DNA from: Octopus vulgaris
Taxonomy: Eukaryota
Assembly: GCA_951406725.2 (NCBI GenBank)
Contig: OX597831.1
Location: 29,326,001 to 29,390,000, forward strand
Direction: 5' to 3'
Length of the DNA stretch: 64,000 nucleotides
How positions within the stretch are numbered: position 1 is the first letter of the stretch; the number at the start of each line of letters is the position of its first letter. The notes below the pieces were generated by a model, which did not search any database, was not told where the DNA came from, and saw only the letters and a list, made by a program, of their open reading frames with translations. Below, one piece after another: positions 171 through 61,366 of the stretch. The translations under genes were made by a program, and so were the position numbers.

Positions 171-1077
171 AGGATGTTTGAAAATATTTGATATCATTTC
201 GCAATCAAATAACTTTGTCACTTCTTGTTCAAATGACTTCAAATTTTAACAGTATGTGTAGAAACAGGTCAAAATTGTATGTTTAATGTTTGATATGTTT
301 ATCTTTTCGGGTATAGAAATAGCGTTCAGTGGAAGAGAAAAGGCGTTTTGTGTGTTGGCGTATGCTCGAACACAGTCGAACAAGACTGTGCAGCGTGCAT
401 TTGTGAGATGGCTCTCTAAGAAGTCACCAACGGCAATGCAGATTTGGACATGGCGCAAAACATTCAAATAGGAAGGCTGTCTGTGCAGGGCAAAAGGATC
501 TTGACGATCAACATCGGAAGAGACAGTCGAGCGGGTTCGTCAAATACTCTAGCGAAGTCCCAAGAAGTCTGGAAACCCAGATTCCTCCATCGACAGTTTG
601 GCGCGTCCTGAGGAAACGCTTGCTAATGAAACCCTACAAACTGCAGCTCCTTCAGGCCATTACGGCGAATGACAAGCGAAAGAACAAACAATTCTGTGAT
701 GATATACAAAAGACTTTGAAGAAACCGAGTTCAAGGAACTTCTTGTTTTCAATGATAAGGCCACATTTCATACGAATGGCAAAGTCAATAATCATGATGT
801 TCGCATTTGGGGCGAAGAAAATCCGCATGCCACAATATAACATGAGAAGGACTCACCAAAAGTGAATGTGCTCTACGCCATCTCCAAGAAACATCTTCAT
901 GGCCCGTTTTTGTGAAATCGTTCATGGAATCCACATACCTTTGAATTTCTCATTCAAATTTTGGGGAATAAATCTTATGTTGCTCAACATTAAGCCTGTT
1001 CAGTTTAATTTGTTTTGACCATGTAATTTCTGTGATATTTACATCTCAAATGATAACAAATTTTTTGAAACACCCTG
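171..1077 (+). mobile_element. Decayed, internally deleted Tc1/mariner-superfamily DNA transposon
   Basis: Imperfect TIRs (left AGGATGTTTGAAAATATTTGATATCATTT; right end reverse-complemented CAGGGTGTTTCAAAAAATTTGTTATCATTT), flanked by TA. Frameshifted transposase: N-terminal HTH-like FCVLAYARTQSNKTVQRAF, then MKPYKLQLLQ, ATFHTNGKVNNHDVRIWG, DSPKVNV and HLHGPF. Confidence 0.85.
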
Positions 1078-3248: not shown

Positions 3249-3655
3249 GGCGCAGGAGTGGCTGTGTGGTAAGTAGCTTGCTTACCAACCACATGGTTCC
3301 GGGTTCAGTCCCACTGCGTGACACCTTAGGCAAGTGTCTTCTGCTATAGCCCCGGGCCGACCAATGCCTTGTGAGTGGATTTGGTAGACGGAAACTGAAA
3401 GAAGCCTGTCGTATATATGTATATATATATTTATATATATGTATGTGTGTGTATATGTTTGTGTGTCTGTGTTTGTTCCCCTAGCATTGCTTGACAACCG
3501 ATGCTGGTGTGTTTATGTCCCCGTCACTTAGCGGTTCGGCAAAAGAGACCGATAGAATAAGTACTGGGCTTACAAAGAATAAGTCCCGGGGGCGATTTGC
3601 TCGACTAAAGGCGGTGCTCCAGCATGGCCGCAGTCAAATGACTGAAACAAGTAAA

Positions 3656-3658
<3 letters not shown>
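3249..3658 (+). mobile_element. SINE family A, full length
   Basis: GGCGCAGGAGTGGCTGTGTGGTAAG head through the GAAACAAGTAAAAGA tail. Confidence 0.92.
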
Positions 3659-3686
<28 letters not shown>

Positions 3687-9283: not shown

Positions 9284-9372
<89 letters not shown>

Positions 9373-9374
9373 CA

Positions 9375-9614
9375 TTCTTTTACTCTTTTACTTGTTTCAG
9401 TCATTTGACTGCGGCCATGCTGGAGCACCGCCTTTAGTCGAGCAAATTGGCCACAGGACTTACTCTTTGTAAGCCTAGTACTTATTCTATCGGTCTCTTT
9501 TGCCGAACCGCTAGGTTACGGGAACGTAAACACACCAGCATCGGTTGTCAAGTGATGTTGGGGGTGGGGACAAACACAGACACATAAACATATACACACA
9601 TATACATACTTATG

Positions 9615-9685
<71 letters not shown>

Positions 9686-9847
9686 GACGGGCTTCTTTCA
9701 GTTTCTGTCTACCAAATCCACTCACAATGCCTTGGTCGGCCCGAGGCAATAATAGAAGGCTCTTGGCCAAGGTGCCACGCAGTGGGACTGAACCCGGAAC
9801 CACGAGGTTGGCAAGCAAGCTACTTACCACACAGCCACTCCTGCGCC
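9375..9847 (-). mobile_element. SINE family A, full length
   Basis: Reverse complement of the family A consensus with an internal (TA)n. Confidence 0.92.
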
Positions 9848-9878
<31 letters not shown>

Positions 9879-14569: not shown

Positions 14570-14584
14570 CACACACACACATGC

Positions 14585-15180
14585 ATATATGGGTACAGGA
14601 CGTCACCAAAAGTAAACAAGATGAACTATACGAAAGCAAATGAGTTCAATACGCAAACAACGAGAGAAACAAATGGAAAACAGGACAAGTAACATCAAGA
14701 ACGACCCTTCATCATTTGTCGGCTGTCTATCTACTCCTCATTTCGAGCAATGAACGACAATATGAGACTTCGAAGACAGTTGCTCCATAAGTACCAAAAT
14801 AAAATTTGGGATTTATGGAGAGTCAAAGTTGGGAACAAAAACAGGACAGTGGTGGCATACAAGGAAACCGAAAGAAAACAAACATGGAAGGTCGTTAGAT
14901 CAGAACGACGGTAAAATAACGAACGCTGGAGAAATATTTTCTTTGACTAGAGAAAAGTTAGAAGAGAGAGAGATCGGATACGTGCTGTCCTTAAAACAGT
15001 CCGGAAAGAAAAGAAGGATGATCAAGTGAAGAAGAGAAAGATGGACAATGGTCACGTGTGATCAACGAGAGCGAGAGAAACGGAGAGAGAGAGAGAGAAA
15101 ACGGTGAAGGGGAGGAAAAAGGAAATTACAGAAAGGATGAGAGAGAAAACAATAGAGAGTCGAATCAAAAAGACAAACTT
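14585..15180 (-). mobile_element. PLE-like family P2 (CT-rich body plus terminal repeat with permuted hammerhead)
   Basis: Homologous to 32100-32625 (+); a short terminal fragment also lies at about 15872-15928. Confidence 0.65.
14704..14766 (-). ncRNA. Candidate non-circularly permuted hammerhead (C3>A variant)
   Basis: The - strand reads CTCAT-A-TTGTCG-ttcatt-GCTC-GAA-ATGAG-15 nt-CGACAA-ATGATGA-A-GGGT. Confidence 0.55.
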
Positions 15181-15222
15181 ACTTGGCGTTCAATCAAATA
15201 ACATAAATAATATATATATATA

Positions 15223-26736: not shown

Positions 26737-27152
26737 GGCGTAGGAATGGCTGTGTGGTATGTAGCTTGCTTACCAACCACATGGTTCCGGGTTCAGTCCC
26801 ACTGCGTGGCACCTTGGGCAAGTGTCTTCTACTATAGCCTCGGGCCGACCAAAGCCTTGTGAGTGGATTTGGTAGACAGAAACTGAAAGAAGTCCCTCGT
26901 ATATGTGTGTATATATGTATGTATGTGTGTATATGTTTGTGTGTCTGTGTTTGTCCCCCCCCCAACATCACTTGACAACCGATGCTGGTGTGTTTACGCC
27001 CCCATAACTTAGTGGTTCGACAAAAGAGACAGATAAAATAAGTACTAGGCTTACAAAGAATAAGTCCTGGGGTCGATTTGCTCGACTAAAGGCGGTGCTC
27101 CAGCATGGCCGCAGTCAAATGACTGAAACAAGTAAAAGAGAGTAAAGAGTAA
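26737..27152 (+). mobile_element. SINE family A, full length
   Basis: Consensus match; preceded by a family B head fragment at about 26590-26715. Confidence 0.9.
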
Positions 27153-27321
27153 ACCATGCACCTGTACAGGCAATAGCAATTTGATGGGAAGAATGAGGTC
27201 AATGTGCAGATCAAATATTTGATCACTATAAAACAAAATCATCTGAGCAGGAGGTTCAGTAAGAAATTGTTGAACCGTCTTTCTCGAATCGTGCGTTGTG
27301 TGTTTCTGAGTTTATGAGTAA

Positions 27322-28475: not shown

Positions 28476-28478
<3 letters not shown>

Positions 28479-29754
28479 CGTATACATTCGATCCTTTTCC
28501 CAAGTAATCTAATGCTCGTAGCTTAGTTTTTCCTTGGGGCTGGCCGGATCGGAGCGATCTCAAGATTAATCAGCCGAAATTGCGAGGATGATCCGGTTCT
28601 TGACTGAAGATTGAAGGCTTCGAATGTCCCGTCCGTGTTTTTTGTATCGTCTTCTAAATGTTTTACGTTCTTGTCCCAGTTTGTATTTTTCTACATATCA
28701 TATATATATATATATGATATGTAGAAAAATACAAACTGGGACAAGAACGTAAAACATTTAGAAGACGATACAAAAAACACGGACGGGACATTCGAAGCGT
28801 TCAATATATATATATGATATGTAGAAAAATACAAACTGGGACAAGAACGTAAAACATTTAGAAGACGATACAAAAAACACGGACGGGACATTCGAAGCGT
28901 TCAATCTCCAGTCAAGAACCGGATCATCCTCGCAATTTCGGCTGATTAATCTTGAGATCGCTCCGATCCGGCCAGCCCCAAGGAAAAACTAAGCTACGAG
29001 CATTAGATTACTTGGAAAAAGGATCGAATGTATACGAAACAAGGACAGAAAAACGGACGATGCCACACGAATATAAATACAAAAAACAATAATAGTAATA
29101 ACAGGACAAAAACAGCGGGTGTCTTACGACTATAGACAGTACAACTAGTTTTAGCTGGCGTATTTGAAAAAAAATGCCTTTTCCGGCAGACGAAGACAAC
29201 GATGTTCTCGTGGCGCTGGTTAGAAGCTGAAAGGCTGGTTGACCAGCGGTCACGTGAGAGGAAGAGAGAGAGAAAAGAAAGGGGGCAAAGGAATCAAAGA
29301 GAGATAGAAAAAGAGGGACGAAGGCACCAAAGGGGGAGAAGAGAGAGAAAGAAGGAATTAAAGAGGGAAGAAGAAAGAAAGCGTGCCAAGGATTGGCTTG
29401 GCGACAGAATCAGTGAGGTGCAAAGTGAGAAAGACAGAGAAATGTGAGAGAGTGGGGGAAGTGGAGAACAAAGAATCAGAGGCAAGAAAAGAGAAAAGGA
29501 GGAGAAGTAGAGAGAGAAAGAGAGAGATCAAAGTAGAGTGCAAAGTGTAAAAGGCAGAGAAATGTAGGAGAGAGAGACAGTGTTATAGGGTCGTACCAAA
29601 TTGAAAGGAATATGTACTTACATACAAGGCCAAAGGGGGTACGGGCGTCGCTATATATATTATATGTAGAAAAGACAAACTGGGACAAGAACGTAAAACA
29701 TTTAGAAGATGATACAAAAAACACGGACTTCAGTCAAGAACCGGATCATCCTCG

Positions 29755-29757
<3 letters not shown>
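28476..29757. mobile_element. PLE-like family P1: inverted and tandem terminal repeats plus GA/CT-rich body
   Basis: 28476-28700 is the reverse complement of about 28813-29039; partial direct copies at 28713-28805 and 29663-29757; solo fragment at 11760-11832; units separated by (TA)n. Confidence 0.78.
28554..28619 (+). ncRNA. Candidate non-circularly permuted hammerhead, intact core
   Basis: GCGAT-C-TCAAGA-ttaatc-AGCC-GAA-ATTGC-14 nt-TCTTGA-CTGAAGA-ttgaa-GGCT. Confidence 0.6.
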
Positions 29758-29794
<37 letters not shown>

Positions 29795-32099: not shown

Positions 32100-32216
32100 G
32101 GACTCTTCTTTTTTTCTCTCTCTCTCTGTCATTGCTTACACGTGACCATCGTCCATCTTTCTTGTTCCTCAATTGACAATGTTACTTTTCCTGCACGGAC
32201 GTTTAAACGAGCGAAC

Positions 32217-32255
<39 letters not shown>

Positions 32256-32790
32256 ATCTTTTCTCTTAAAAAAACAAAAATATTTCTCCCAGCATTCACT
32301 ATTTTCCTCTCGTTCTGGTCTAACGACGTTCCATTTCTCTTTTCGTTCGGTTTCCTTGTATGTCTCCAGTATCATTTTTTTTTTGTTCCCAACTTTGATC
32401 CTCCATAAATCATAAATTTTATTTTATCATTTATGCGAGCAACTGTCTTTGAAGACTCATATTGTCGTTGAATGCAGGAAATGAGGAGTAGATAGACAAC
32501 CGACAACTGATGAAGAGTCATTTCTCTGTGTTAACTTGTCCTGTTTTCCATTTGTTCCTCTCGTTGTTTACGTATTTCATGTTTTTTGCACTGTTGGTGT
32601 CGTCCTGTACTCATACATGCATGAACTAGGGACAGCTGATGAAGGGGATTTTTCCTTGTGTAGTTCGTCTTGTACTCTGTTTTTTCGTTGTTAAAAAAAT
32701 GGTCAGTTCCATGCTGTTTTTACTTTTTCGTTTCTCGTTGAGTTCTACGTCTATTTGTGGTGTCCTGTACACACGTATATATATATTTAT
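32100..32790 (+). mobile_element. PLE-like family P2 copy plus a tandem 5'-truncated terminal repeat
   Basis: Homologous to 14585-15180 (-); a second GACA.CTGATGAAG.G unit starts at about 32629. Confidence 0.62.
32456..32518 (+). ncRNA. Candidate non-circularly permuted hammerhead (stem II decayed)
   Basis: CTCAT-A-TTGTCG-ttgaat-GCAG-GAA-ATGAG-15 nt-CGACAA-CTGATGA-A-GAGT. Confidence 0.55.
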
Positions 32791-42286: not shown

Positions 42287-42697
42287 CAAAGTGTTCGGGC
42301 TAAATTTGACAGTTTGCATAAAAGAAAAAGAAAACACAATAGTAAAAGAAAACGGCTGGGGGATAAATTTGTTACTGAAGTAACTAACCTATTAACGAAC
42401 AATAACAAGAAAGGACCCAACCAGTGCGTGTGTTTGTTATTATTGGCATAATGCCCCTCCCAAGGTTCAATAGTAAAACACAGTATCCTATCCAAAAGTA
42501 CAAATAGTTTGGAAAAAAAAAATTATCAACTAGGCGCAGGAGTGGCTGTCTGGTAAGTAACTTGCTTACCAACCACATAATTCCGGGTTCAGTCCTATTG
42601 CGTGGCACCTTGGGCAAGTGTCTTCTACTACAGCCTCGGGCCGACCAAAGCCTTGTGAGTGGATTTGGTAGACGGAAACTGAAAGAGGCCCGTCGTA

Positions 42698-42748
<51 letters not shown>

Positions 42749-43770
42749 GAATATGTATGTATGTATGTGTGTGTATATGTTTGTGTGTCTATGTTTGTTC
42801 CCCCAACATTGCTTGACAATCGATGGTGGTGTGTTTACGTCCCAGTAACCTAGCGGTTCGGCAAAAGAGACCGATAGAATAAGTACTAGGCTTACAAAGA
42901 ATAAGTTCTGGGGTCGATTTGCTCGACTAAAGGCGGTGCTCCAGCATGGCCGCAGTCAAATGACTGAAACAAGTAAAAGAGTAAAAGAGAGTAAGAGTAG
43001 ATTGCGGCTGGGGGATAACAGTTTCATCAAAATAGCCGCCCTCAGCTTCCACCACAGGCTCAAGGCGGCTCTAGAACCGGGCCCATTTGTTCGTTAATGT
43101 GTCCCTAGTAAAATCTTCGAACACCTTCTTTATCTTGGTCACCAGCTCGGCCTTAGTGCTGCAGGCTGAGCGGTTGCTATCTTTCTCTACCGTGCCTTAC
43201 ACTGAGTAATCCATAGGGTTACAATCAGGGAAATTAAGGGGCCGGAAAGTGGGGATAGTGAAGTCGTAGACTTCTCCGATAACCATTTCTGATATTTCCA
43301 GAAGTTTAGCAACGAGTCCAATCCTGCTGCCACACATATGGCCTTCCGGCAGCAACCTTCCCCAGCCAGAGATTCATAGTCTCCAGCAGCTCTGTAGAAC
43401 CGTTTGAATTGAGTCCAAGCCCATGTTCAAAGAGTTGGGGTGGCATGACGTTATTCGTATTAGAGATAAACCATTACATCTTGTGGGAACTTGGCTTTGA
43501 TGATGTCCATGTCACGTGGTACAGCCTTTACTGAGTTCACACAGAATTTGACCAGAAGTCATAACGTCGGCATTTTGATGTCCGGCGCAAATCCTCAATT
43601 TTCCCAATGTTCAGATGGGTTCCAGTACTCCATGTCAGCTAAGCTTTTCTCGACTACAACTTTAATCTTTATGCTCTCCAACGCTGTTGACTTTTCACCA
43701 ATACATTAAACTGTTCCTGAAAAAAAAAAATGAAACATAAAAAATCATAAGATTTAGCCCGAACACCTTG
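42287..43770 (-). mobile_element. Decayed, deleted Tc1/mariner (maT-like) transposon with a nested insertion
   Basis: TIRs CAAAGTGTTCGGGCTAAAT / CAAGGTGTTCGGGCTAAAT; the - strand gives PLNFPDCNPMDY and EAEGGYF remnants. Confidence 0.8.
42533..42998 (+). mobile_element. SINE family A, full length
   Basis: Consensus match. Confidence 0.92.
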
Positions 43771-49608: not shown

Positions 49609-49889
49609 TTTTAATTCTTCTACAGCAGAAATTAGATACACCCGCTCAAAATTTCATTACCATCAACAGCAGAAAGTAGTTTTATACAACAATCTATCTT
49701 TTGTTAAAGAATATCATGTTTGAAACTATTTTCTGTCGAGATATGCAGAGTTTATTGCAGAAAATGCCAGAACTATTTCTGGAGGATATTTAACATCAGT
49801 ACCGAAATAAACAGGAAATTTAATTTCGCAGTTAAAAATTTAAAACACGTTTTAAACTCACAGTTTAATCGTCTAATTTATTATTTTAT

Positions 49890-50309
49890 TCTTTTATTCT
49901 TTTACTTGTTTCAGTCATTTGACTGCGGCCATGCTGGAGCACCACCTTTAGTCGAACAAATCGACTCCCAGGACTTATTCTTTGTAAGCCTAGTACTTAT
50001 TCTATCGGTCTCTTTTTTTCCCGAACCGCTAAGTTACGAGGAGGTAAACACACCAGCATCGGTTGTCAAGCGATTGGGGGGGGGGACAAACAAACTCACA
50101 AACATATATACACACACACACACATATATATATATATACATATATACGATTGGCTTCTTTCAGTTTCCGTCTATTAAATCCACCCACAAGGCTTTGGTCG
50201 ACCCGAGACTATAGTAGAAGACACTTGCCCAAGGTGACACGCAGTGGGAATGAACCCGGAACTGTGTGGTTGGTAAGCAAGCTACTTACCACACAGCCAC
50301 TTCTGCGCC
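49890..50309 (-). mobile_element. SINE family A, full length
   Basis: Reverse-complement consensus match. Confidence 0.9.
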
Positions 50310-50434
50310 TAACCACACAAAAAGTACAATTAGTTGTTTATATTGGTTTTATCTCTCTTGACTGTTGTTGTTAGGTTTTAAACAACACTACAGGCAGTTT
50401 TCTTGTCAGTGACTGCATGAATAATCCCACTATA

Positions 50435-56868: not shown

Positions 56869-57090
56869 ATAACATAAGGGACTAAAGCCATCTGAATATG
56901 GCTAGGGACAGGGCAGGGTGGTGGGGGTGTTACTGTTGCATTTAGCCCCAGGCGAACATCGACGTCACCAGAAAGGCTCTGTCGAGCCTTTCTGGTGACG
57001 TCGATGTTCGCCTGGGGCTAAATGCAACAGTAACACCCCCACCACCCTGCCCTGTCCCTAGCCATATTCAGATGGCTTTAGTCCCTTATG

Positions 57091-57094
<4 letters not shown>
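56869..57094. repeat. Perfect palindrome, 111-bp arms with a 4-nt loop
   Basis: 56869-56979 is the reverse complement of 56984-57094; a related diverged sequence lies at about 52-140. Confidence 0.95.
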
Positions 57095-57125
<31 letters not shown>

Positions 57126-57130
<5 letters not shown>

Positions 57131-57643
57131 ATACAATATGTTACATTACTCGGTAGTCAAGATAAAACTCTGAGTTTCAGATGCCGAAGTGGAAATCCAC
57201 AACACCATCTCTTCCTGAGATGGTGTTGTGGATTTCAGAGTTTTATCTTGACTACCGAGTAATGTAACATATTGTATAGATAAATTTCCTCTATTTACAT
57301 AATATTGAGGTCTCTTTCTTTCTTTTGTTATCTTACCGTTTTATCAATAAATCACCTCCCGGACGACGTTATTCTCAACTAAGAGCTAATACGACCTTTT
57401 TGGGATTATCGCCTAACATCGGTTGAGGACTCTCACAAACAAAAGAATCTAATATGGACGCATATCACATAGATTATTCTATGAAAGGAAGAGATGGTGT
57501 TGTGGATTTCCACTTCGGCATCTGAAACTCAGAGTTTTATCTTGACTACCGAGTAATGTAACATATTGTATAGATAAATTTCCTCTATTTACATAATATT
57601 GAGGTCTCTTTCTTTCTTTTGTTATCTTACCGTTTTATCAATA
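57126..57643 (+). mobile_element. PLE-like insertion: inverted arm, partial repeat, spacer, full repeat
   Basis: 57126-57216 is the reverse complement of about 57486-57576; 57217-57349 is directly repeated (with a 20-bp deletion) at 57491-57643; (TA)n flanks. Confidence 0.75.
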
Positions 57644-57699
57644 TATATATATATATATATTTAAATGCATACGTGTATATATTATGTATGTATATACAT

Positions 57700-57908
57700 A
57701 CTCTTTACTCTTTTACTTGTTTCAGTCATTTGACTGCGGCCATGCTGGAGCACCGCCTTTAGTCGAGCAAATCGACCCCGGGACTTATTCTTTATAAGCC
57801 CAGTACTTATTCTATCGGTCCATTTTGCCGAACCGCTAAGTGACGGGGACGTAAACACACCCGCATCGGTTGTCAAGCAATGCTAGGGGGACAAACACAG
57901 ACACACAA

Positions 57909-57967
<59 letters not shown>

Positions 57968-58220
57968 TACGACAGGCTTCTTTCAGTTTCCGTCTACCAA
58001 ATCCACTCACAAGGCATTGGTCGGCCCGGGGCTATAGCAGAAGACACTTGTCCAAGATGCCACGCAGTGGGACTGAACCCGGAACCATGTGGTTTGTTAG
58101 CAAGCTACTTACCACACAGCCACTCCTGCGCCTATCTGCGCCACACAGCCACTCCTGCGCCTATCTGCGCCACACAGCCACTCCTGCGACTATCTGCGCC
58201 ACACAGCCACTCTTGCGTCT
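57700..58220 (-). mobile_element. SINE family A with a tandemly amplified 5' end
   Basis: 29-bp unit CCACACAGCCACTCCTGCGCCTATCTGCG at 58112, 58141, 58170 and 58199 (partial). Confidence 0.9.
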
Positions 58221-58591: not shown

Positions 58592-58605
58592 TGCCTATGT
58601 ATATA

Positions 58606-58787
58606 GGCGCAGGAGAGGCTGTGTGGTAAGTAGCTTCCTTACCAACCACATGGTTCTGGATTCAGTCCCACTGCGTGGTGCCTTGGGCAAGTGTCTTCCA
58701 CTATAGCCTCAGGCCGACCAAAGCCTTGTGAGTGGATTTGGTAGACGGAAACTGAAAGAAGTCAATCGTATGTATATGTATGTGTAC

Positions 58788-58829
<42 letters not shown>

Positions 58830-59042
58830 CTGTATTTGTCCCCCCAACATCGCTTGACAACCGATGCTGGTGTGTTTACGTCCCCGTAACTTGGTGGTTC
58901 GGCAAAAGAGACCGATAGAATAAGTATAAGTCTTACAAAGAGTAAGTCTTGGGATCGATTTGCTCGACTAAAGGCGGTGCTCCAGCATGGCCACCGTCAA
59001 ATGACTGAAACAAGTACAAGAATAAAGGAATAAAAGAATAAA

Positions 59043-59045
<3 letters not shown>
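58606..59045 (+). mobile_element. SINE family A, full length
   Basis: Consensus match. Confidence 0.9.
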
Positions 59046-59077
<32 letters not shown>

Positions 59078-60660: not shown

Positions 60661-60894
60661 TCTATACAAATGTATTATGGATATAAAAAATTACAGATAT
60701 ATATCTCATACGGCATTAGTAGGCCCGAGGCTATAGTAAAAGACACTCGCCCAATGTACCACGCAGTGGGACTGAACCCGGAACCATTAAGTTGTGAAGC
60801 AAGCTTCTTACCACACAGCCAAACCTACGCCTACGTATATATGCATACATTTGTATACGCACACAAATGCAAATATATATAGATATACTCTCTC

Positions 60895-61102
60895 TTTTCT
60901 TTCTTTTAATTGTTTCAGTCATTTGACTGCGACCATGCTGGAGCGCCGCCTTTAGTCGAACAAATTGACCCTAGGACTTATTTTTTGTAAGCCTAGTACT
61001 TATTCTATCAGACGCTTTTGCCGAACTGCTAAGTTACAGGGACGTAAACACACCAGCATCGGTTGTCAAGCGGGACAAACACAGACACACAAAAACATGC
61101 AC

Positions 61103-61150
<48 letters not shown>

Positions 61151-61302
61151 GACGGGCTTCTTTCAGTTTCCGTCTACCAAATCCACTCACAAGGCTTTGG
61201 TCGGCCCGAGGCTATAGTAGAAGACACTTGCCCAAGGTTCCACGCAGTGGGACTGAACCCGGAACCAAGTGGCTGGTAAGCAAGCTACTTACCACGCAGC
61301 CA
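60895..61302 (-). mobile_element. SINE family A (extra fragments at 60720-60812 and 62050-62135)
   Basis: Reverse-complement consensus match. Confidence 0.88.
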
Positions 61303-61366
61303 TTCATATATATATATATGCTCACAGAAACACCAACGCACCAACGCACCAACACACTAACATACC

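Follow-up and report, generated by a model that had tools for sequence, protein, structure and literature searches.

A candidate split-core hammerhead ribozyme with helices between A9 and G10.1 in Octopus vulgaris repeats and at the 3′ ends of Naiad elements

Canonical hammerheads (types I, II, and III) of Penelope-like elements and retrozymes have a circular block order and lack a pseudoknot in the core. Non-circular permutations have also been described and shown to cleave, and the related types SGC and CSG cleave in vitro (PMC10085705). Type-SGC (HRIMA-1 and variants) has the block order S-G-C, a short linker between stems I and II, and an extra helix that connects the far ends of these stems, whereas type-CSG, which the same paper reports from two metagenomic sequences only, has a reversed cyclic order. 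Eckert et al. (2023) take the link between A9 and G10.1 as holding at most 1–2 extra bases (PMC10085705). The pseudoknot hammerhead and pistol form stem II as a pseudoknot of about 6 pairs, and A9 leads straight into G10.1 (PMC11300833).

Naiads insert into (TA)n targets and show 5′ truncation, partial tandems, and inversions, which is the pattern reported for Penelope-like elements (PMC8557442). Craig et al. (2021) reported that Naiads proliferate without canonical hammerheads, flagged eight families, including one of Octopus vulgaris, as "HHR_half_core", and asked whether hammerheads merely parasitise Penelope-like elements (PMC8557442). The non-coding, tandem, hammerhead-bearing derivatives of Penelope-like elements known as non-LTR retrozymes carry type I hammerheads, and a 2026 preprint on animal retrozymes treats type I only (bioRxiv 10.64898/2026.07.22.740005). 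One 2026 paper mentions hammerhead variants "containing additional helices". Our literature search, which had most subscription journals and the supplementary alignments of PMC10085705 outside its scope, found no permuted hammerheads in Naiads or animal genomes, no helices in the A9–G10.1 link, and no tested precedent for two helices opening that link.

We analyzed a 64,000-nt stretch of the Octopus vulgaris genome (hereafter the window), in which an initial annotation had reported a permuted hammerhead in a repeat family, P2. The P2 motif has neither the circular block order nor the pseudoknot-free core of the canonical types. It shares with type-SGC the block order, the short stem I–stem II linker, the extra helix (ext in P2), and the predicted cut, and it differs in that the uninterrupted block C of type-SGC, with at most 1–2 nt from A9 to stem II, is lacking. 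With type-CSG it shares the reversed cyclic order, but the chain is opened elsewhere; with the pseudoknot hammerhead and pistol it shares stem II as a pseudoknot, but the connectivity is different. Its predicted layout is outside the six published hammerhead permutations. Hammerheads in Penelope-like elements and non-circular permutations were already known, and what appears new is a split core with helices A and B at Naiad ends.

P2 copies in the window and in the genome

The features of the window that bear on the motif are as follows.

32103–32622 (+): P2 element, 5′-truncated and non-coding, about 520 of ~670 nt
32397–32402 (+): helix A 5′ strand, GACCCU in the family and GAUCCU (decayed) in this copy
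32403–32436 (+): hairpin B, whose last base lies directly before G10.1; closing pair broken in this copy
32437–32441 (+): stem II 5′ strand GAGCA, with G10.1 at 32437
32443–32448 (+): 5′ strand of the connecting helix (ext), CUGUCU
32449–32455 (+): purine-rich loop strand joining ext to stem III, GAA opposite AGUA
32456–32460 (+): stem III strand CUCAU, with U16.1 as its last base
32461 (+): H17 (A); cut predicted 3′ of this base from hammerhead analogy and 5′-end mapping
32462–32467 (+): stem I strand UUGUCG, 3′ of the predicted cut
32473–32477 (+): stem II 3′ strand, UGCUC in the family and UGCAG in this copy (C11.1 lost)
32478–32485 (+): G12-A13-A14 (GAA, 32478–32480) and stem III strand AUGAG (32481–32485)
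32486–32499 (+): loop strand and ext 3′ strand, AGACAG in the family and AGACAA in this copy
32501–32513 (+): stem I strand CGACAA (32501–32506) and core CUGAUGA (32507–32513)
32514–32519 (+): helix A 3′ strand, AGGGUC in the family and AGAGUC in this copy; "stem II" of the initial annotation
32622–32775 (+): copy of sister family P3, 5′-truncated, adjoining the P2 3′ end and retaining only the stem I strand, core, and helix A strand
14580–15210 (−): second P2 element, near full length; ribozyme 14703–14824, H17 at 14761, core C3>A
28476–28700 (+): P1 inverted partial copy, ribozyme complete, H17 at 28559
28804–29760 (−): P1 full unit with a partial copy upstream; core CUGGAGA

The loop at 32449–32455 is loop-E/kink-like. 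A scan for the strand order on both strands of the window gave three matches, of which two were the P2 copies and one was P1 at 28559. The strands placed by the initial annotation at 32456–32518 and in the minus-strand copy, stems I and III, and the lesions of both copies (C3>A; stem II GCAG) were borne out on reading the sequence; the feature itself is wider (32397–32519), because the stem II partner GAGCA lies upstream. The losses in the 32.4-kb copy are C11.1 (C11.1>G), a second stem II pair, one helix A pair, and the closing pair of hairpin B, and the 14.7-kb copy has the single core lesion listed above; both copies are decayed and probably inactive. Among the 150 of 709 Rfam matches listed for the window (E ≤ 5), all were microRNA models on microsatellites and inverted repeats, and the self-repeat search of the window was dominated by microsatellites.

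We searched the Octopus vulgaris genome (2.8 Gb, 227 contigs) for further copies. The P2 unit is ~670 nt long with fixed ends, (TA)n flanks, and no ORF. A search with a 161-nt P2 query yielded 2,725 candidates at first look, and the 40 that were scored were 89–93% identical to it without the self match. A fixed pattern that demanded an intact core, stem III, and both stem II strands gave 226 exact matches against 0 for the reversed control, far above chance, and a loose pattern for the whole motif class gave 24,175 matches against 5,172 for the control. The core and stems I–III were intact in only 10 of 56 sampled P2 copies. The majority sequence of these 56 copies has the hammerhead core (CUGAnGA, GAAA, and UH), which the 32.4-kb window copy also retains. 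The core is flanked by stems I, II, and III with G10.1-C11.1 and A15.1-U16.1; stem II pairs upstream and not downstream as had been drawn.

P1 (about 830 nt) and P3 are, judging from their copies, younger sister families of P2 with unrelated helix sequences. The top P1 copies are 98–99% alike and the P3 copies 96–99%, which suggests recent mobility of both families. All three families occur as 5′-truncated copies, partial tandems, and inversions, and an array on contig C6 (85539723–85545581; L054–L059) consists of about eight P1 units placed head to tail, all of them carrying a complete ribozyme. The P families resemble the non-LTR retrozymes as non-coding tandem units with a hammerhead in each, and they differ from them in having units of 670–830 nt with the permuted motif instead of type I.

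Strand order and helices of the split core

We assembled 18 representatives, namely 8 families or subfamilies from the Octopus vulgaris genome and 10 metagenomic loci, to compare the helices. The strands follow the order A5′ - hairpin B - II - ext - III/UH/I - II′/GAAA/III - ext - I/CUGAnGA - A3′. The initial annotation had paired GCUC of stem II with the downstream GAGU (GGGU). The family strand at this downstream position is AGGGU in 32 of 50 P2 copies, and it forms 4 pairs, 2 of them wobbles, with the stem II 3′ strand (−1.5 kcal/mol). With the upstream GAGCA, by contrast, UGCUC pairs perfectly (−5.4 kcal/mol). Upstream stem II has at least 5 Watson-Crick pairs in 17 of the 18 representatives, against 25 of 300 cross-family pairings and 275 of 3600 shuffled sequences, and its first pair is G-C in all 18, as G10.1-C11.1 demands. 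The downstream assignment of stem II is thus replaced, while the non-circular order and the predicted cut 3′ of A32461 stand from the permuted architecture as first proposed.

Ext starts 0–3 nt from upstream stem II and has at least 5 pairs in 16 of 18 representatives. The loop between ext and stem III is GAA opposite AGUA in P2 and P4, and in P1 and N1 it matches a kink-turn. At some loci (L277 and L282), only 0–2 nt separate stem III from ext, which would strain a single-molecule fold.

The strand directly after A9 pairs with a far-upstream strand to give helix A (GACCCU/AGGGUC in P2), and hairpin B occupies the stretch from helix A up to G10.1. Since the strand that follows CUGAUGA closes helix A beside hairpin B, two helices would stand between A9 and G10.1; by the same pairing, the strand previously labeled stem II belongs to helix A, and the free ends of the RNA lie within helix A. 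An unconstrained search for helix A gave a weak result (12 of 18, against about 30% in the nulls). The constrained test for helix A with hairpin B was positive in 14 of 18 representatives, against 51 of 302 and 143 of 720 in the nulls; the pair was not found in P6, P4, N1, and L340, and the N1 result was still negative after L072 had replaced L067 as its representative. These values, together with upstream stem II, are what separates the motif from an uninterrupted type-SGC block C.

Covariation was observed for stems I, II, and III, ext, helix A, and hairpin B, as had been claimed across repeat families. CUGAnGA, GAAA, UH (H never G), and G10.1-C11.1 are retained in all 18 representatives while the helix sequences vary, in a scan that itself required the core. 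In 13 aligned P1-group copies, 88% of the cells of the four-helix model are paired and 12 of 24 pairs are changed on both sides, and 0 of 500 shuffles reach the observed count of cells with two-sided changes, a comparison in which the kinship of sequences alone can beat shuffles, the cross-family null being the stronger test. Upstream stem II of this group is 82% paired and shows compensation in 3 of its 6 pairs, and ext is 86% paired.

Occurrence at the 3′ ends of Naiad elements

The "HHR_half_core" entries of the published Naiads, including that of Octopus vulgaris, correspond to the split motif described here (PMC8557442), and a motif taken from the published Octopus Naiad consensus has 137 exact matches in the genome against 0 for the control. 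We read by eye 24 of 54 published Naiad consensus 3′ ends (300–600 bases each, with identity assigned via table order). The split form was seen in 8 of them (two octopus, squid (decayed), coral, hydrozoan, box jelly, comb jelly, and acanthocephalan), the complete CSG form in 3 (Nbra-3, Hpol, and Smim, from two nematodes and a spider), and nothing clear in 13.

We then fetched 80 metagenomic Naiad-like loci, set aside 15 with a tail shorter than 200 nt, and scanned 65. Non-circular hammerheads were found in 12 of the 65 tails (10 split and 2 CSG, the latter in L304 and L324), none was canonical, and the controls gave 0 of 390 (reverse strands, 0/65; shuffles, 0/325). By eye, L346 (3010–3130) has a CSG hammerhead in which 23 nt forming two hairpins are inserted between A9 and stem II, and it is, on its sequence, a natural intermediate between CSG and the split form. 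If so, CSG, CSG with an insert, and the split form would make a natural series for RNA permutation via tandem duplication, in which the order of events is not claimed. At the Rfam gathering score, no match was obtained in 20 loci, L274, L324, and L346 among them. A quick RT tree (81 rows) placed the split forms on several deep branches, and their clustering did not reach significance (a value as low in 45 of 500 shuffles).

No motif match was found in 53 of the 65 tails, most of which were without any CUGAnGA, so the motif is not universal in Naiads. These motif-negative tails might hide another ribozyme; no Rfam match was found in 17 such loci. Oyster and ark-clam Naiad ends (PMC8557442, File S5) share a different GC-rich structured tail, and the motif of these bivalve ends was absent from the 80 metagenomic loci. 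A search of viral contigs yielded no Naiad relative.

Within the Octopus vulgaris genome, Naiad RT matches are followed by the motif at a distance of 0.8–1.4 kb in 5 of the 30 close loci, for which 1.5-kb flanks were covered, and in 1 of the 20 distant ones. Locus L188 contains the broken remains of an ORF with an N-terminal GIY-YIG, CxC, DK, and RT, after which come the N1 motif and (TA)n. The Penelope-like link that had been suggested is thereby given for the Naiad clade through N1, a sister family of P2, and not for P2 itself, which has no such ORF. A junction of P1 or P2 with an autonomous RT plus GIY-YIG element, proposed earlier as a check, was looked for and not found: none of P1, P2, and P3 stood at the 3′ end of an ORF at 20 GIY-YIG-match and 50 RT-match loci, and the upstream extension of their copies stopped at a fixed non-coding 5′ end. 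P2 has the (TA)n target, 5′ truncation, and partial tandem and inverted copies of Naiads, and the shared motif and insertion style place it on the Naiad side; the (TA)n target alone is not specific to Naiads, since an intact family with a C-terminal endonuclease in the same genome also ends in (TA)n. Every Naiad RT match in the genome is broken, with a longest open frame of 292 aa, though P1 and P3 are young.

An abundant, intact Penelope-like family (L178–L186, e.g. L179:2961–6100) has a 784-aa ORF that joins an RT to a GIY-YIG at its C terminus, and its 3′ end consists of a type I hammerhead with the core UUGAAAA (U3-A8 in place of C3-G8), a palindromic stem III, and (TA)n. We discarded it as the motif's source on account of this ordinary type I layout; it may be the enzyme that mobilizes P1, P2, and P3.

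Predicted cleavage and alternative readings

We mapped the 5′ ends of P1, P2, and P3 copies with queries from downstream of the predicted cut, excluding one locus-edge copy, three P3 copies whose start coincides with that of the query, and seven ends located past +40. The interval from 0 to +24 relative to the predicted cut held 34 of 97 ends, that from −25 to −1 held 7 of the other 63 (Fisher p 7e-4), and the start of three P3 copies coincides exactly with the predicted cut. By family, the ends after and before the cut numbered 15 and 1 in P1 (p 0.004), 10 and 2 in P2 (p 0.09), and 9 and 4 in P3 (p 0.53), the pile-up being significant alone only in P1. Many ends show AT microhomology to the (TA)n target. 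The pile-up is a hint of cleavage in vivo and fits run-off of a reverse transcriptase at cleaved RNA, and it could also come from stalling of the enzyme at the structure, from AT microhomology, or from non-independent copies of a short master. In assembled contigs of four sequencing runs each for P1 and P2, no spliced joins or ends were found in the presumed-RNA runs, a result that is uninformative on cleavage and expression.

On this evidence, we consider activity of the family as a ribozyme very probable for some assembly state, and probable, with less assurance, for the single-molecule form. For P2, we favor with the same restrained confidence a non-coding parasite repeat whose split-core hammerhead, in intact copies, likely folds on itself and likely cuts 3′ of H17. 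The arm of ext and stem III would bend at the purine-rich loop, and its apical loop would dock on the two flanking strands at the base of the same molecule, building the standard core, with helices A and B taking the place of the A9–G10.1 link. If both ribozymes of a partial tandem cut, a unit-length RNA template might then be freed for a Penelope-type reverse transcriptase supplied in trans, and reverse transcription off the cut end would leave short copies that start at the site.

The same secondary structure could instead require two copies for activity, joined in a tandem transcript or meeting in trans, with the apical loop of one docking on the flanking strands of the other, and solo insertions in host genes would then not cut. 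We regard this as unlikely, though a serious competitor. The links between stem III and ext are very short or one-sided in L277, L282, and L340, the arm length varies widely, and the insertions occur as partial tandems and arrays. Minimal Penelope hammerheads were reported to cleave as dimers (Lunse 2017), in the crystal of the pseudoknot hammerhead, coaxial stacking carries the helix beyond stem II away from stem III (PMC11300833), and Eckert et al. raised the same geometric puzzle (PMC10085705). However, SGC ribozymes cleaved during transcription (PMC10085705), stems I and II remain at 4–8 pairs as in pseudoknots, and the loop match in P1 and N1, with an ext mostly of 5–11 pairs, suits a fold-back. 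Minimum-energy folding, which is nested and has pseudoknots outside its model, does not discriminate between the two: P1 and L274 form the arm of stem III and ext, and P2 and N1 copies give alternative hairpins without it.

A conserved but non-catalytic fold of ribozyme descent, serving as a handle for a retroelement protein or as a pause site, would accommodate the interrupted core, and pausing of a reverse transcriptase at a stable structure could yield the 5′-end pile-up too; we consider it improbable, given that the core elements persist in all 18 representatives of the core-based scan while the helices turn over, and that the three P3 copies begin precisely at the predicted cut. An ordinary type-SGC ribozyme with stem II built from the strand directly after CUGAnGA, for which 4 pairs can be formed within 2 nt of A9 in P2, P3, P4, and L275 (4 of 18) and at least 4 pairs within 6 nt in 8 of 18, is very improbable, since this pairing is weaker than the upstream one in every case and missing in 10 of 18, the P1-group downstream stem is 58% paired with 418 of 500 shuffles as high, and the strand pairs better in helix A.

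Returning to the split-core ribozyme, we lean slightly towards the broad reading that it represents a seventh hammerhead architecture, a five-helix catalytic junction (I, A, B, II, and III) caged by a kinked arm. It would serve as the active ribozyme in a large part of the Naiad clade, in hosts that range from comb jellies and corals to octopuses, would occupy roughly 19,000 sites in this genome, would set the 5′ end of the retrotransposition template, and possibly cuts only in tandem. If this holds, a rearranged ribozyme at Naiad 3′ ends argues that cleavage belongs to the Naiad cycle and closes the gap stated by Craig et al., non-circularly permuted ribozymes gain their first known host and biological role, and the A9–G10.1 link of the best-studied ribozyme core can hold whole helices, which would make it a new engineering port.

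A donor-like GTAAGT is located near the 5′ end of P1, P2, and P4-type units, and an acceptor-like pyrimidine-AG stands directly before stem II in P3 and P4; the sites noted are window 15180–15190 (−) and 14790–14805 (−) and the P3/P4 loci L095 and L128, and the contigs gave no spliced join. Elsewhere in the window, a 152-aa frame at 407–862 (+) resembles a Tc1/mariner transposase fragment. A SINE-like repeat of 400–480 nt has more than a dozen copies (2114–2519, 3249–3686, 9350–9850, 26737–27153, 42531–42994, 49885–50311, 57650–58135, 58596–59074, 60873–61320, and others). Clustered near-perfect inverted and direct repeats (98–99%) at 56869–57646 are possibly another Penelope-type insertion.
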